A stretch of DNA of 64,000 nucleotides from positions 1-64,000 of the IMG/VR virus record IMGVR_UViG_3300050151_000071, one strand, 5' to 3'. Shown in pieces: positions 2,385-39,767 of this stretch; the first letter of the stretch is position 1, and the number at the start of each line of letters is the position of its first letter. Under the pieces are notes generated by a model. That model worked only from the letters and a program-made list of their open reading frames with translations. It had not been told where the DNA came from and did not search any database. The stretch comes from a virus. Lineage: Duplodnaviria > Caudoviricetes. Both the position numbers and the translations under genes were made by a program.

Positions 2385-2460
2385 TGGCTGTCCTACCTGG
2401 ACTCGAACCAGGATCCCGACGCTTTAGAGACGAGTGCAATAACCATTATACCATAGGACA
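2385..2460 (-). tRNA. tRNA with CUA anticodon (putative amber suppressor; Trp/Gln-like body, U1-A72, G73)
   Basis: TGTCCTA/TAGGACA acceptor, G+CCA end, T-arm CCTGG-TTCGAGT-CCAGG, loop CT-CTA-AA; anticodon stem has only 3 of 5 pairs. Confidence 0.7.
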
Positions 2461-2711: not shown

Positions 2712-2789
2712 TGGTGCGCCGTGCGGGACTCGAACCCGCAACCAAATCTTTTAGAGGGATCTGCTCTAACCAAATTGAGCTAACAGCGC
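2712..2789 (-). tRNA. second tRNA with CUA anticodon (putative amber suppressor, A73)
   Basis: GCGCTGT/ACGGCGC acceptor, GCTC/GAGC D-stem, GATCC-CTCTAAA-AGATT arm, canonical T-arm, encoded CCA. Confidence 0.8.
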
Positions 2790-6678: not shown

Positions 6679-6806
6679 AGAAACTCCTCTGGTGCGCATC
6701 GTAGAGAGGCGTGAGGAGTGTTGTTACATTTGTAGAAGAATAAGCCAAGGTAACTAGTGTTGTCTTGCGCCCTTATTCTTAATCACTGTTTCCAGCAATT
6801 GGTAGT

Positions 6807-35058: not shown

Positions 35059-35466
35059 TCAGTCTTTGGTATTCCTATAAATGTAATCGTTTAAATTTGG
35101 TGCCCACGTTATAAGGATTTGCTTATCGAGGAAAAAACGACCCTCGAACAAGTAATAGCCATATCCGTGATCTAATAGAACTTCTAAAACGTGATGGAGT
35201 TGAGAGTTAGCTCTTTGATCAAAGAAGTCACAAACGGCCACTTCTCCAACTATAGATTTTAAACCTATTTGTTTAGAATTATAATGTTCTGATACTTCTG
35301 CTGTACAAGCGTCTGTTATTAGCTTAACTGTATCAGGAACACTAAGTCTTTTAAGATCTTCTGCAAGAACACATAAATCCTTAGCTGTTATCACTCGCGG
35401 TTCCATCCCAAATGTTCCATACTGGTAAGCTGTCATTGAAGATGCCTTTACGGCACAGCTTGTCAA
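35059..35466 (-). CDS. hypothetical protein (start uncertain)
   Basis: ORF overlapping the 3' end of the RNA ligase gene. Confidence 0.55.
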   Translation of the reverse strand: MTSCAVKASSMTAYQYGTFGMEPRVITAKDLCVLAEDLKRLSVPDTVKLITDACTAEVSEHYNSKQIGLKSIVGEVAVCDFFDQRANSQLHHVLEVLLDHGYGYYLFEGRFFLDKQILITWAPNLNDYIYRNTKD

Positions 35467-36625
35467 AATCTGTGTCTGACTTATCGCACATCTTCAAGAT
35501 GATCTCTTTGAAAGAGTCAGCAATCATTAGGTGCGGATGGAACGGATAATCGTTCCGTCTGTCAAACAGTTTAAAGCCAATTGTCCGAGTAATGTGATCA
35601 GAATCAATTGTGCTGATCGCGAAGTCCTTCTTCGTCTCAAAAGTACGAAGAGCCTCGTATAGAGACAACGCAATACCTTCTAAACGTTCTTCATACTGCA
35701 TAACGAATTGCTTAGCGTAAGCCTCAAGCTTCGGACGTACGTGGTCTGGAACCAGACCCAAAGCATCATCGATCCGTTCGTTGAGGATAAGACCCACAAC
35801 GTACTTCTCTTTGGCGATAGCTTCACGGTTCTTGTGGAGGTCCATGTACCAAAGGCTTTTTACCTTCAGACGATCTCCGTTACGCAGTTCTACAACTACA
35901 CCTTCGGTTCCCTCAAGCTCTCGTACTTGATCGACCAATGAAGCATTATCCGATACTTCCCAGCGTTTTACAACAGGGATATTGAAGCAAGATGCGAGGC
36001 TAGCCATCTTATCATACGACATGTATTCACCAGTATTGATGTCACGAACCGCAAGAAGAGACATTGTTTCTTCAGGGTGGTTTACAACGATCCGATGCTT
36101 CGGCGCCATGTATTCAAAGATGGGAGTCATGTTCCGCTGAGAGATGAGAATACCAGCAAAGTCGTGATATTTCTTCATCATTTTACCGGAGGTCAGGGTG
36201 CTTTCCATAGTGGAACGCTGAACGAAGGATCGCAAGTCGTCAGTCATATGGGTGAGGCCCATCTTGGTACCCCAAACCAGATCACCGTTCAGAAAGAACG
36301 GAGCAACCATAGACCCATCAAGCTTGTCATACACAGCCACGATCTCGTTGAGATCGATGTCGCGAGACTCCATGCGCTCTCCGAAGTTGAAGAACTTATG
36401 CAGGGGACGTCGTAGAATCTTACCAGTCTTCGCACAGAAAATCATACCGCGACATTCACGAAGAATGGCAGCTTCATGTCCCACTGATAGGTCCGGGAAC
36501 ACTGACATGATCGATCGATAGTTGACTACAAGATAGTCACCTTTATCAGCAATGTAGAATGCTTCATCAGGTTGCGCCTCAACATAGAGACGCACATCAT
36601 CGATGTGTTCAATTTTAGGAAACAT
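35381..36625 (-). CDS. rnlA: RNA ligase 1 (T4 Rnl1-like)
   Basis: ECRGMIF, RPLHKFFN, KLDGS, FEY, EGVVV and KVKSLWY..H. Confidence 0.9.
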   Translation of the reverse strand: MFPKIEHIDDVRLYVEAQPDEAFYIADKGDYLVVNYRSIMSVFPDLSVGHEAAILRECRGMIFCAKTGKILRRPLHKFFNFGERMESRDIDLNEIVAVYDKLDGSMVAPFFLNGDLVWGTKMGLTHMTDDLRSFVQRSTMESTLTSGKMMKKYHDFAGILISQRNMTPIFEYMAPKHRIVVNHPEETMSLLAVRDINTGEYMSYDKMASLASCFNIPVVKRWEVSDNASLVDQVRELEGTEGVVVELRNGDRLKVKSLWYMDLHKNREAIAKEKYVVGLILNERIDDALGLVPDHVRPKLEAYAKQFVMQYEERLEGIALSLYEALRTFETKKDFAISTIDSDHITRTIGFKLFDRRNDYPFHPHLMIADSFKEIILKMCDKSDTDFDKLCRKGIFNDSLPVWNIWDGTASDNS

Positions 36626-37150: not shown

Positions 37151-37200
37151 AGTGGAAGAGAGAAGGTTTGTTTAAAGGTTGCGTGTACCTAAATAGATGT

Positions 37201-37665
37201 ATGAAACATAGATACACAGAAGAACAACTGAGAGCTGTAATTGAAACGTCGTATTCTGTACGACATGTGTTACAACAACTAGGAATTGCTGCTCAAGGCG
37301 GCAACTATAAAGTGATCTACAAATTTGCTAAAGAATACAACATAAGTTTGGATCACTTCACTGGTAAAGTGTGGAGTAAAGGAAAAACTCTTACTCCACG
37401 TAGAGACATTCAAGATTACCTCTCGAACAAATTTCCATGCAACTCCGGTAGACTCAAAAAACGATTAATATCTGAAGGGTTCTTTACTGATCAATGTAGT
37501 AGCTGTCAGTTGAGTAAATGGCTCGGGAATCCAATTCCATTAGAGTTGGATCATGTTGATGGGAACAGTGATGATAACAGTTTGAGTAACCTGAGATTAC
37601 TATGTCCCAATTGTCACGCTCTAACTCCAACCTATAGAGGTAAGAATCAGAAGCGTTGTAAATAA
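37201..37665 (+). CDS. free-standing HNH endonuclease
   Basis: CSSC...LELDHVDG....N.LSNLRLLCPNCH; CTAAATA 5 nt before ATG 37201; stop abuts the tRNA-Leu CCA. Confidence 0.88.
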   Translation: MKHRYTEEQLRAVIETSYSVRHVLQQLGIAAQGGNYKVIYKFAKEYNISLDHFTGKVWSKGKTLTPRRDIQDYLSNKFPCNSGRLKKRLISEGFFTDQCSSCQLSKWLGNPIPLELDHVDGNSDDNSLSNLRLLCPNCHALTPTYRGKNQKRCK

Positions 37666-37955
37666 TGGTATCCCCGGCCGGAATCGAACCGGCACCCTTT
37701 CGGAACGGATTTTCGTACCACTACAACTTTCGTTGCCGCTCGTCGAGCGTTTGTAGTCTGGACTATACCTTGACCATTGCCGAAGCTTTAGGCCCTGCCC
37801 GTCTAGTCTCTACACCTTCCTCTTTTCGAGGCTTGGTTCGGGATTGCCATGTGAAAGGTTTCCCCGAATTTGAGCAGTTCTACTCCAAGAGTTTCCTCAA
37901 GGGCACTCAGTTTCCTATCAAAGTCCGTCGCGTCTACCAATTCCGCCACGGGGAC
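37666..37955 (-). tRNA. trnL: tRNA-Leu(UAA) interrupted by a group I intron (exons 37955-37921 and 37713-37666)
   Basis: GTCCCCG/CGGGGAT acceptor; the spliced arm reads ACGGA-CT T|AA AA-TCCGT. Confidence 0.92.
37714..37920 (-). mobile_element. ORF-less group I intron (207 nt, IC3-like)
   Basis: P AAATTCGGGGAA, Q AATCCCGAAC, R GTAGAGACTAGA, S AAGGTATAGTCC; P1 ACTT/GAGT with U-G; terminal G. Confidence 0.92.
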
Positions 37956-37987
37956 ACATAATTCAAATCTTTCGATCTGATTTGTCT

Positions 37988-38016
37988 AATATATATTCTA
38001 TTGATCAATAATTCAA
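37988..38016 (-). promoter_or_regulatory. early promoter for the intron-containing tRNA
   Basis: TTGAAT-N17-TATATT. Confidence 0.55.
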
Positions 38017-38024
38017 CAGAGAAA

Positions 38025-38687
38025 TCAAAGGTTCTTATAAAACTCCGCCACTACATCTTTCAGAGGTTGAACCCAAGGTTTAACGTTCTCAACGAAAACT
38101 GTAGCACCTTCGTTCTCAACTGTCATTAGAATGACTATTTGTCGTGGACACGTTTCTTCATCTTGTGTACGTTCGTACCACATGTATGCATAACCAGCAC
38201 ACTGCATGAAGTAGTTTGAAATCATGTCTTTAGTTCTAGGACGTCTAGCGTTCTTAAAGTCAATGATTGCTGGACGGCCTTTGTATTCAGCAATCAAGTC
38301 AGCTCGTCCAGCTAACTTCAAAGTATCTGAATATAACGCAGTTTCTAATCCGAAGACTCTTCCAACATCTTTATCGATGATTGGTTTCAAATCATTAAAT
38401 CGATCGAGCGCAAGGTAACCGGTCTTTGGATAAGGGATACCTCTAATGTGTGCTTCTGCAATTTCGTGCATCTCTGTTCCGAGAGCAGCAGAGCGGTCAC
38501 GAATCTTTTCAGCTTCCTTCTCGCCTACTTTAGCGATCCATTTGAGAAGCTGCTCGGGTTTCTCTTGAGCACTTAGTACAGTAGTCATTGAGGGATAAGT
38601 TGCCCCCTCGGGAGTCACGTAATGTCGTTTACCGTTTACCTCTGTAGTGTTGAGTTGGACGTCGTATCGTAGGTCTAGTATTGCCAC
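38025..38687 (-). CDS. PD-(D/E)xK exonuclease (Cas4/YqaJ-like)
   Basis: YPSMTTVL, GTEMH, GRADL, IIDFKN and YFMQ..GYA. Confidence 0.85.
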   Translation of the reverse strand: MAILDLRYDVQLNTTEVNGKRHYVTPEGATYPSMTTVLSAQEKPEQLLKWIAKVGEKEAEKIRDRSAALGTEMHEIAEAHIRGIPYPKTGYLALDRFNDLKPIIDKDVGRVFGLETALYSDTLKLAGRADLIAEYKGRPAIIDFKNARRPRTKDMISNYFMQCAGYAYMWYERTQDEETCPRQIVILMTVENEGATVFVENVKPWVQPLKDVVAEFYKNL

Positions 38688-39034
38688 TGTTGCATGGTTG
38701 TGCGCATCTTCTTACGGATTGATCGCACAGTCCCTTCTTGTTCTAAATGCGATAGTATGTTTAGCGTACGTTGTGTTTCTATATTTGGACCGCCATCGAC
38801 GTCATAATCACCGGACGATGAAAGAGGGAGTTCGCTGTAGTGCCAAATTTCACTATTGTCTTCCAAGATTATTAGAGTTTCAAACTCAACAAAATAATCT
38901 ACGTTCGGATTTGGTGGTAGGGGAAGATCGAACCCGGGCTTTTCATACCCGGGTTCATTGAGTGGAGATCTTCCCTCCGTATCATTTTCTCTTAGCAGTG
39001 GTCGTGGGTTTCGCATTCCGCAGCTCATATTCAT
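38675..39034 (-). CDS. hypothetical protein (start uncertain)
   Basis: ORF between phoH and the exonuclease gene. Confidence 0.5.
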   Translation of the reverse strand: MNMSCGMRNPRPLLRENDTEGRSPLNEPGYEKPGFDLPLPPNPNVDYFVEFETLIILEDNSEIWHYSELPLSSSGDYDVDGGPNIETQRTLNILSHLEQEGTVRSIRKKMRTTMQQWQY

Positions 39035-39767
39035 AGGTTACAAATTCTTTCACGAAGCCACTACGAACAATATCTGCAGGTAGAAACTCAACGAATTCAA
39101 CACGATCTTCCATCTTGCGAAGGATTTCCAAGGTCTTCCATAGACCTTCCTTATCCTCGGCGTCCGACAAATCTGACTGGTCGTAGTCACCGGATAAGAT
39201 TACTTGGCAGTTTTCACCAAAGCGAGTTAGGATACTCTTCTGTTCGTGGTACGACATGTTCTGTACTTCATCTAGGATAACAATGCTGTTATCCAGAGTG
39301 ATACCACGAACATATGATGTCGATACAAACTTAACAATCTCTAGACCCTTTAGGATCTTATATGCGTCATTACGACCGAACAACTCAGCACAAATCAGTT
39401 GATATGGCTCCTCATAAACAGCCATCTTATCTTCTAACTTACCAGGCAAGTGTCCAACTTCTCTTGAAGGAACAGCTGAACGATAGATGATAATTTGTTT
39501 GTACTTTTTGTGATACAACACGGCTTCTAAAGCCATATACATCGCAACGAATGTTTTACCTGTACCAGGGCAGCCGTGCAGCACTACACTCTTATTAGCA
39601 CGGAAAGCTTTAAGAGTCTTTCCTTGTGCGTGTGTTTTTGCTTTTACAGATCCAAGTGATAGTTGCTGTGAAGGAGCTGGTCTACTACTTCGTCCCTCAT
39701 ACCGATTATCACCTCGAGATTGCGCCGTATCTCGTTCACGTTGTTCTTGGCGCTTGTTTTTACGCAT
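38982..39767 (-). CDS. phoH: PhoH family ATPase
   Basis: GCPGTGKT, RSAV, G.LPG.L.DK, RG.TLD, ILDEVQN and GDYDQSD. Confidence 0.93.
   Translation of the reverse strand: MRKNKRQEQRERDTAQSRGDNRYEGRSSRPAPSQQLSLGSVKAKTHAQGKTLKAFRANKSVVLHGCPGTGKTFVAMYMALEAVLYHKKYKQIIIYRSAVPSREVGHLPGKLEDKMAVYEEPYQLICAELFGRNDAYKILKGLEIVKFVSTSYVRGITLDNSIVILDEVQNMSYHEQKSILTRFGENCQVILSGDYDQSDLSDAEDKEGLWKTLEILRKMEDRVEFVEFLPADIVRSGFVKEFVTYEYELRNAKPTTTAKRK

Follow-up and report, generated by a model that had tools for sequence, protein, structure and literature searches.

In a phage from leaf litter we found a tRNA-Leu(UAA) gene (trnL(UAA)) that is split by a group I intron lacking an open reading frame (ORF) and that is touched at its 3' end by a convergent gene for a small HNH endonuclease. 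The window, by which we mean the whole stretch of DNA that was analyzed, comprises the first 64,000 nucleotides (nt) of the IMG/VR record IMGVR_UViG_3300050151_000071, a viral contig of 75.9 kb. We lean, with somewhat better than even confidence, toward the view that intron and nuclease make up a two-part selfish element in this phage tRNA gene, in which an IC3-type group I intron and an HNH enzyme specialized on trnL would spread together by collaborative homing.

Structure and integrity of the intron

The split gene, the elements of its intron and the endonuclease gene occupy the following window positions.

37666..37955, minus strand: tRNA-Leu(UAA) gene including the intron (direct reading; split tRNA in ARAGORN -i; four stems that covary across 32 relatives)
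37921..37955, minus strand: 5' exon, 35 nt, ending in CUU at U34 (direct reading, ARAGORN -i)
37714..37920, minus strand: ORF-less group I intron, 207 nt, P1 to P9, omega-G at 37714 (Rfam RF00028, covariation)
37905..37908, minus strand: internal guide GAGU, which pairs with exon ACUU to give P1 with a U.G wobble at the 5' splice site (sequence)
37804..37808, minus strand: P7 5' strand GACUA of the guanosine-binding helix, pairing with 37761-37765
37761..37765, minus strand: P7 3' strand UAGUC (pair counts)
37666..37713, minus strand: 3' exon, 48 nt, from A35 onwards, starting AAAA, with long variable arm and T arm and ending ACCA (direct reading, ARAGORN -i)
37201..37665, plus strand: free-standing HNH endonuclease gene, 154 amino acids, from ATG at 37201 to TAA at 37663-37665 (Pfam, PHROG)

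The intron is a structurally intact group I intron of the trnL(UAA) type at the classical site. If the 5' exon is taken to end with U34 and the intron with G37714, the junctions read CUU/...g/AAAA, as in the bacterial trnL(UAA) intron, whose position between U34 and A35 of tRNA-Leu has been defined as the "Leu.3Ug" type (Williams 2020). A preliminary description of the sequence had placed a 207-nt ORF-less intron after U34 of tRNA-Leu(UAA), and this agrees to the base (37920..37714) with direct reading; ARAGORN reports a 207-nt intron at 34/35 when introns are allowed. The spliced exons would form an 83-nt class II tRNA with the anticodon UAA, a long variable arm and an encoded CCA, and this is the only UUA-reading tRNA on the contig. 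Its 5' exon is the same as that of trnL(UAA) of Agrobacterium phage Atu_ph07 over 35 of 35 nt. The boundary preferred by ARAGORN -i lies one base to the left and would make the gene a tRNA-Phe(GAA); it was rejected, as it would leave C instead of omega-G at the end of the intron.

The Rfam model RF00028 (Intron_gpI) matches 37930..37721 over its full length (model positions 1-253) with 49.7 bits and an E-value of 1.9e-11, against a gathering score of 50, and this is its sole match on the 75.9-kb contig; a default ARAGORN run and an Rfam run at the gathering cut-off report neither the split tRNA nor the intron. To examine the structure comparatively, we aligned 32 ORF-less intron-bearing tRNA(UAA) genes with less than 90% mutual identity, consisting of those of the window, Atu_ph07, the phage sequence LR756501 and 29 IMG/VR contigs. 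From these sequences RNAalifold recovered the acceptor, D, T and anticodon stems of the tRNA, the last of these closing over the intron, together with P2, P3, P4, P5, P6, P8 and a three-way P9. When the P7 pseudoknot is added, 97.3% of the cells are paired and 51 of the 72 pairs show compensatory changes on both sides, and the covariation score is 0.622, compared with 0.187 in shuffled alignments (none of 500 reaches 0.622) and 0.07-0.12 with slid partners. P7 is nearly invariant, with four invariant pairs and one compensatory pair (AU in 19, UA in 13 sequences); all 32 sequences have the U.G pair at the 5' splice site, and omega-G is invariant as well. The window intron keeps 69 of the 72 consensus pairs, the exceptions being two U.U appositions in P2 and one position in P9a that is possibly an alignment artefact.

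From this intact, covarying ribozyme structure we infer that the intron splices; no RNA dataset containing the locus was listed among the public runs. The introns most like that of the window are those of Atu_ph07 and LR756501, and segments of bacterial trnL(UAA) introns match the window intron with 68-82% identity. Comparison loci carry L-numbers as labels, such as L013 and L016, with Atu_ph07 as L001 and LR756501 as L002. A joint Rfam E-value search on these last two gave no match, though the intron is present in both by eye and by BLAST.

The HNH gene and its tie to trnL(UAA)

The convergent arrangement noted in the preliminary description, with the HNH stop codon at 37663-37665 directly against the tRNA CCA, is borne out by the sequence, as there are 0 nt between the stop codon and the tRNA 3' end, the complement of CCA starting at 37666. 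The encoded protein matches the Pfam family PF01844 (HNH) with 22.4 bits against a cut-off of 21.4 and PHROG 10822, "HNH endonuclease", with an E-value of 2.4e-41. It has all residues that are invariant in an alignment of 36 relatives, namely CxxC at 99/102, H118, N130 and C-P-N-C-H at 135-139, and the nearest HNH proteins are 63-65% identical to it. An AlphaFold (AF2) model with a predicted local distance difference test (pLDDT) score of 87 consists of an N-terminal three-helix domain and a C-terminal HNH fold. Searches of the PDB by sequence and by fold returned just weak matches of the HNH and helix-turn-helix-like kinds, the structural ones (Z below 5) falling on HNH domains for residues 67-154 and on helix-turn-helix-like domains for residues 1-60. 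No Shine-Dalgarno sequence precedes the ATG at 37201. A TTG at 37168 was considered as an alternative start and rejected, as MKHRY marks the position where relatives start and as just 1 nt separates the Shine-Dalgarno-like GAGAAGG from the TTG.

The HNH family to which this protein belongs is tied to trnL(UAA) genes, almost without exception. It comprises 2631 protein clusters at E <= 1e-10 in a large protein collection and 314 confirmed relatives in IMG/VR, and gene layouts were determined for the best 80 of these 314 viral loci (46 clusters at 90% identity) and for the best 80 of at least 484 bacterial loci. On the viral side, 76 of the 80 are located either within the intron of a trnL(UAA) or directly against a trnL(UAA) gene that may or may not have an intron, and on the bacterial side this holds for at least 66 of the 80, with 44 inside the intron and 22 adjacent to trnL(UAA). 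The layouts are distributed as follows.

Viral, window's layout (ORF-less intron in tRNA(UAA), HNH gene convergent, gap of -1 to +2 nt): 27, plus one truncated
Viral, HNH gene in the intron, antisense, P6 loop: 10-11
Viral, HNH gene in the intron, sense, P1 or P6 loop: 6-8
Viral, HNH gene abutting intronless tRNA(UAA), convergent: 8
Viral, HNH gene abutting intronless tRNA(UAA), HNH upstream on the same strand: 16
Viral, HNH gene abutting intronless tRNA(UAA), tRNA upstream: 4
Viral, HNH gene abutting intronless tRNA(UAA), divergent: 1
Bacterial, HNH gene in the trnL(UAA) intron, antisense: 37
Bacterial, HNH gene in the trnL(UAA) intron, sense: 7
Bacterial, HNH gene beside intron-bearing trnL: 4
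Bacterial, HNH gene beside intronless trnL(UAA): 18
Bacterial, unclassified: 14

Viral HNH genes are thus found inside the intron, in both orientations taken together, at 16-19 loci and against an intronless trnL(UAA) at 29 of 80, and in long viral tRNA arrays, too, the neighbor of the HNH gene is the UAA species. The bacterial set includes isolates, for example of Salinisphaera, Mycobacterium and Hymenobacter, and several of its 14 unclassified loci hold intron segments.

Four viral loci, representing three HNH clusters, are left over. Two of them, L080/81, follow a degenerate trnL-like gene, and another, L013, abuts a trnL(UAA) with just a ~32-nt insert at the intron site. The HNH protein of L013 is, at 58% identity, the one most similar to the window HNH among the viral loci, and at L013:3470-3590 (minus strand of the locus) the insert of ~32 nt interrupts a tRNA-Leu(UAA) anticodon loop exactly at the intron site. 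Because it is too short, this insert is not a group I intron; it may be a deletion remnant or another kind of insert.

Phylogeny and probable traces of intron movement

A quick IQ-TREE phylogeny of the HNH proteins (46 rows) splits by strand relative to the tRNA. One clade, on the same strand, contains the upstream free-standing genes and the sense intron copies, and the other, on the opposite strand, contains the window's layout, the convergent genes beside intronless tRNAs and the antisense intron copies. In both clades the presence of the intron and the position of the HNH gene inside or outside it flip repeatedly, amounting to 19 changes over 8 states, and at least four changes for the window's layout are forced by the starred branches of the tree. 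The window HNH falls in a starred group (96) with the antisense P6-loop copies of L004 and L006, plus L013; since it groups with antisense intron-encoded copies, its position outside the intron arose independently of the main outside clade of the same layout.

Of all pairs the most instructive is the near-isogenic one of L016 and L025/L026, which share HNH genes that are at least 90% identical, syntenic flanks and the same tRNA gene. This gene is intronless in L016 and carries a precise 197-nt intron at U34/A35 in L025/L026, and the exon differences between the two are concentrated in the anticodon stem (AGGCA/UGCCU versus ACGGA/UCCGU), which fits a gain of the intron at the DNA level with co-conversion of a few flanking bases. 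Among the loci with the window's layout, moreover, the introns are more alike (p-distance 0.098) than the tRNA exons that surround them (0.217), and these exons belong to both short-arm tRNAs (73-77 nt) and long-arm tRNAs; an intron that passes from one tRNA(UAA) gene to another would be expected to leave such a pattern.

Proposed mechanism and alternative explanations

We propose that the element has two parts. The IC3-type group I intron at U34/A35 would excise itself from the precursor, so that the tRNA stays usable, and the small endonuclease, with its predicted helical DNA-binding domain and zinc-HNH domain, belongs to a family specialized on trnL(UAA). The HNH gene, on the opposite strand, would be transcribed from a CTAAATA motif, probably as a late gene, into a nearly leaderless mRNA. 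During co-infection with a related phage that lacks the HNH gene, the enzyme would most likely nick or cut an intronless trnL(UAA) in or near the anticodon region; an intronless allele near the insertion site is the most likely target because many members of the family are encoded inside this very intron, so that the argument is one of homology. With the HNH-bearing genome as template, repair would then transfer the HNH gene together with the intron, which lies 48 nt away from it and would ride along owing to this short distance, as suggested by homology with the intron-encoded members and by what is known of homing endonucleases. Such a process would amount to collaborative homing. The weakest step of the proposal is that the intron would make the resident allele immune. 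Collaborative homing had already been put forward in the preliminary description, and it has held up with regard to the intact intron at the classical site, the tie of the HNH family to trnL(UAA) and the recurrence of the convergent, abutting layout in an independent clade; the protection of its own allele by the intron is conjectural.

Several observations weigh against this proposal. Seen from the intron, in a sample of 120 viral loci listed with an intron core, for which 98 split tRNAs were called, 39 of the 73 non-"far", well-flanked intron-bearing viral tRNAs listed are without an HNH gene, while 20 have it inside and 14 within 300 nt; at 3 further intron loci listed it lies farther away. 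No HNH gene was found within 2.5 kb of the introns of Atu_ph07 and LR756501, the nearest to that of the window. The association is asymmetric, since the HNH gene is nearly always at trnL(UAA) and 39 of the 73 introns listed are without it: the nuclease is specialized on trnL(UAA), and the intron is often alone. Co-occurrence in relatives, which the preliminary description had named as a check, gives a divided picture, close from the side of the nuclease and patchy from the side of the intron. The same HNH occurs with and without the intron (L016 versus L025/L026), which indicates that this HNH tolerates an intronless neighbor. At the loci with the window's layout the distances of HNH and intron are only weakly correlated (rho 0.30), and we found no mapped cleavage site for any member of the HNH family. 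Seven of 19 intronless trnL(UAA) genes that abut an HNH gene have the same G30-C40/A31-U39 anticodon stem as the intron-bearing alleles, and the intron is therefore not needed for the neighboring gene to survive. The same phage is present, in fragments, in four further leaf-litter runs, and these contained no variant of it lacking the intron or the HNH gene; nor did a search through the flanking exonuclease reveal close relatives, the best matches in IMG/VR and the JGI metagenomes being 39-40% identical. Because neither variants nor close relatives were found, mobility in this phage lineage is argued from other lineages.

Two candidate lines of evidence were set aside. "Joints" across the intron in the leaf-litter runs come from intronless tRNA-Leu genes of other organisms and not from phage variants. 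The exon pairs 30-40 and 31-39 failed as a test of immunity: G30-C40/A31-U39 is kept in 21 of 22 intron-bearing alleles versus 7 of 19 intronless HNH-adjacent alleles, and it is kept likewise in introns without any HNH gene. Because it is kept with or without the HNH, the pattern cannot be read as nuclease escape, and it is linked to the intron itself through P1 and co-conversion.

Much of this would also be expected if the HNH were a free-standing homing endonuclease of the trnL(UAA) neighborhood and the intron an unrelated passenger, co-converted only through nearness, an explanation that we regard as unlikely and yet deserving of serious consideration. In that case the enzyme would cut at or beside the tRNA gene, for example near its ends, where the HNH gene abuts, and resident alleles would be immune because their sequences differ, unless the enzyme is simply a nickase that is tolerated. 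In line with this, the HNH gene lies against an intronless trnL(UAA) at 29 of the 80 viral loci and at 18 of the 80 bacterial ones, the same HNH occurs with and without the intron, about half of the sampled introns (39 of 73 listed) lack an HNH gene, and the HNH gene is placed exactly at the tRNA end in several independent lineages. What tips our judgment toward collaborative homing is that at least 16 viral and 44 bacterial members are intron-encoded, that the established target of such genes is the intronless insertion site, and that the window HNH is nearest to intron-encoded copies. The collaborative homing model is also preferred over two further explanations. It is improbable, in our estimation, that the HNH has been taken over by the phage to cut the trnL(UAA) of the host or of a rival phage, or other DNA, with the intron shielding the phage copy, so that UUA decoding would come to depend on the spliced tRNA of the phage, an idea that the preliminary description had raised for the host copy; the pair would then be a weapon and more than a selfish element. 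TTA accounts for 15.5% of the Leu codons of the phage, which carries 15 tRNA genes and, nearby, an Rnl1-type RNA ligase, and intronless bacterial trnL(UAA) contigs that match the 5' half and the anticodon stem are present, as a weak indication, in the same leaf-litter runs; this support is circumstantial, no link leads from the enzyme to host DNA, and bacterial chromosomes carry family members peacefully beside a single intronless trnL(UAA). We give the least credence of all to a relic, that is, an intron that no longer splices and has left a tRNA pseudogene, an inactive HNH, or both. An Rfam score 0.3 bits below the gathering cut-off, the two U.U mismatches in P2 and the HNH start without a Shine-Dalgarno sequence could be taken in this sense, yet 69 of 72 consensus pairs are kept with the U.G pair of P1, P7 and omega-G intact, all invariant HNH residues are present in a full-length ORF, and the gene encodes the sole UUA-reading tRNA on the contig.

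Relation to known systems

The tRNA-Leu(UAA) intron is the textbook example of an "ancient" intron of bacteria and plastids, and its patchy distribution has long been disputed between vertical descent and lateral movement; to our knowledge, the classical intron is regarded as ORF-less. The window intron resembles it in its insertion site (CUU/...g/AAAA), its lack of an ORF, its length of ~200 nt and its core helices, and differs from it in residing in a phage genome and in being paired with an HNH gene. According to a review from 2014 (PMC3984707), every phage intron known by then was in a protein gene, even though phages have many tRNA genes, and a catalog of bacterial tRNA introns that includes Leu.3Ug leaves phages and endonucleases unmentioned (Williams 2020); neither of the two mentions an endonuclease with the trnL(UAA) intron. 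The present findings place group I introns in phage tRNA genes, where that review reported them absent. In full-text literature searches we came across neither a description of introns in phage tRNA genes nor one of a partner HNH. Relative to the literature found, the novelty would lie in extending the known theme of group I intron plus homing endonuclease, with collaborative homing, to a tRNA gene of a phage and to the classical intron of trnL(UAA).

Known examples of collaborative homing are the DNA polymerase intron of the T7-like phage PhiI with the gene 5.3 HNH and the psbA intron of cyanophage S-PM2 with F-CphI. As in these pairs, the presumed target gene is interrupted by a group I intron without an ORF, and a free-standing endonuclease gene is directly adjacent; unlike in these pairs, the target is a tRNA gene and not a protein gene, the nuclease gene is convergent and touches the 3' end of the target, relatives of the nuclease are found also inside the intron and beside intronless alleles, and cleavage and immunity are postulated. 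Passages on the term collaborative homing and on F-CphI are found in PMC3984707 and PMC6083498.

The cyanobacterial tRNA-fMet system likewise combines a homing endonuclease with a group I intron in a tRNA anticodon loop, and it differs in that the tRNA is another one, the system is bacterial and the endonuclease is intron-encoded, whereas the window HNH gene lies outside the intron. The tRNA-fMet intron endonuclease is not known to have an HNH fold. Its specificity for the anticodon region is attributed to Bonocora and Shub 2001 in a passage of PMC3984707. T4 SegB is also encoded by a free-standing homing-type nuclease gene among phage tRNA genes and, unlike the window HNH, is not known to keep to a single tRNA species or to have a partner intron. 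SegB is a GIY-YIG enzyme. Literature on free-standing endonucleases in phage tRNA gene clusters includes PMC13096335 and PMC2988022.

If our proposal is true, it would supply a concrete mobility engine, acting at the DNA level, for the trnL(UAA) intron. The HNH family is seen beside intronless alleles, beside intron-bearing alleles and inside the intron, there in two loops and in both orientations, and its members would then line up naturally as stages, several of them within one family, of the path along which introns have been proposed to pick up endonuclease genes.

Split tRNA genes in other phages

In Atu_ph07, a cultured jumbo phage, the intron-bearing trnL(UAA) (MF403008 ~112,890-113,250; L001:2505-2867) is unannotated, and a "hypothetical protein" coding sequence has been annotated over its 3' exon. 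LR756501, an uncultured phage of 735 kb, has its intron-bearing trnL(UAA) at L002:2494-2785. Because such split tRNA genes escape default tRNA finders and annotation, as in Atu_ph07, phage tRNA repertoires are undercounted.

The same intron core occurs in split tRNAs that ARAGORN calls Arg(UCU), for example in L144, L149, L152, L179, L186, L190, L195 and L204, and Leu(CAA), in L105, L112 and L153, and these two groups may be real additional insertion targets. Other anticodon calls are made as well, and some of them (Tyr ata, Phe gaa/aaa, Stop tta) result from shifting the boundary of a UAA gene by one base. Many phage tRNAs with a UAA anticodon are 73-77 nt long and have a short variable loop, which gives them a class I shape unlike the canonical long-arm tRNA-Leu; such tRNAs lie next to the HNH gene in L015, L019, L020, L025, L055, L061 and L065 and, intronless, in L016, L041, L049, L056 and L062.

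Transcription signals and genome context

Candidate promoters flank the locus on both sides.

37189..37195, plus strand: CTAAATA, late-promoter-like motif 5 nt before the HNH ATG (motif counts, strand bias; candidate only)
37988..38016, minus strand: sigma-70-like TTGAAT-17-TATATT, 33 nt upstream of the tRNA 5' end (consensus scan)

Over the whole window the minus (coding) strand has 13 copies of CTAAATA, often in the form CCTAAATA, against 3 on the plus strand, and there is a single TATAAATA; the arrangement of CCTAAATA, 5 nt and an ATG is found again at 1531. CTAAATA is probably the core of the late-type promoter of this phage, and a late promoter for the HNH gene is plausible from the motif. 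The preliminary description had spoken of a late-promoter HNH gene, and of this the strand-biased motif 5 nt before the ATG stands, while promoter status is a matter of the motif. Since the number of sigma-70-like sites is not above that in shuffled sequences, the second candidate draws its standing from its position.

On the plus strand, the complement of the intron P9a hairpin is followed by a T-rich run at window positions 37737-37749, a terminator-like site 72 nt downstream of the HNH stop that could end the antisense HNH transcript within the intron. In the clade whose HNH genes are read on the tRNA strand (L035, L040, L048, L049, L062 and L064), inspection of the 70 nt upstream of the HNH ATG revealed an extended -10 element (TGnTATAAT-like) 6-7 nt before it, a proximity that suggests leaderless HNH mRNAs at these loci. 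In L064 a full TTGACA-17-TATAAT lies within the P6 loop.

The Rnl1-type RNA ligase, a PD-(D/E)XK exonuclease (PHROG 298) and PhoH are the neighbors of the locus (window 35381-36625, 38025-38687 and 38982-39767, respectively, all on the minus strand), and the RNA ligase together with the 15 tRNA genes suggests a region for tRNA supply and repair. At window 2385-2460 and 2712-2789 (minus strand) lie two different tRNAs whose anticodon, CUA, reads amber and which ARAGORN calls "Pyl"; the phage genes are otherwise open under the standard code. Rfam matches at gathering level were obtained for a skipping-rope RNA (45.3 bits, window 15219-15355) and an abiF RNA motif (38.9 bits, window 6683-6718), both on the minus strand, and the abiF motif is found also in L080 (49.9 bits).

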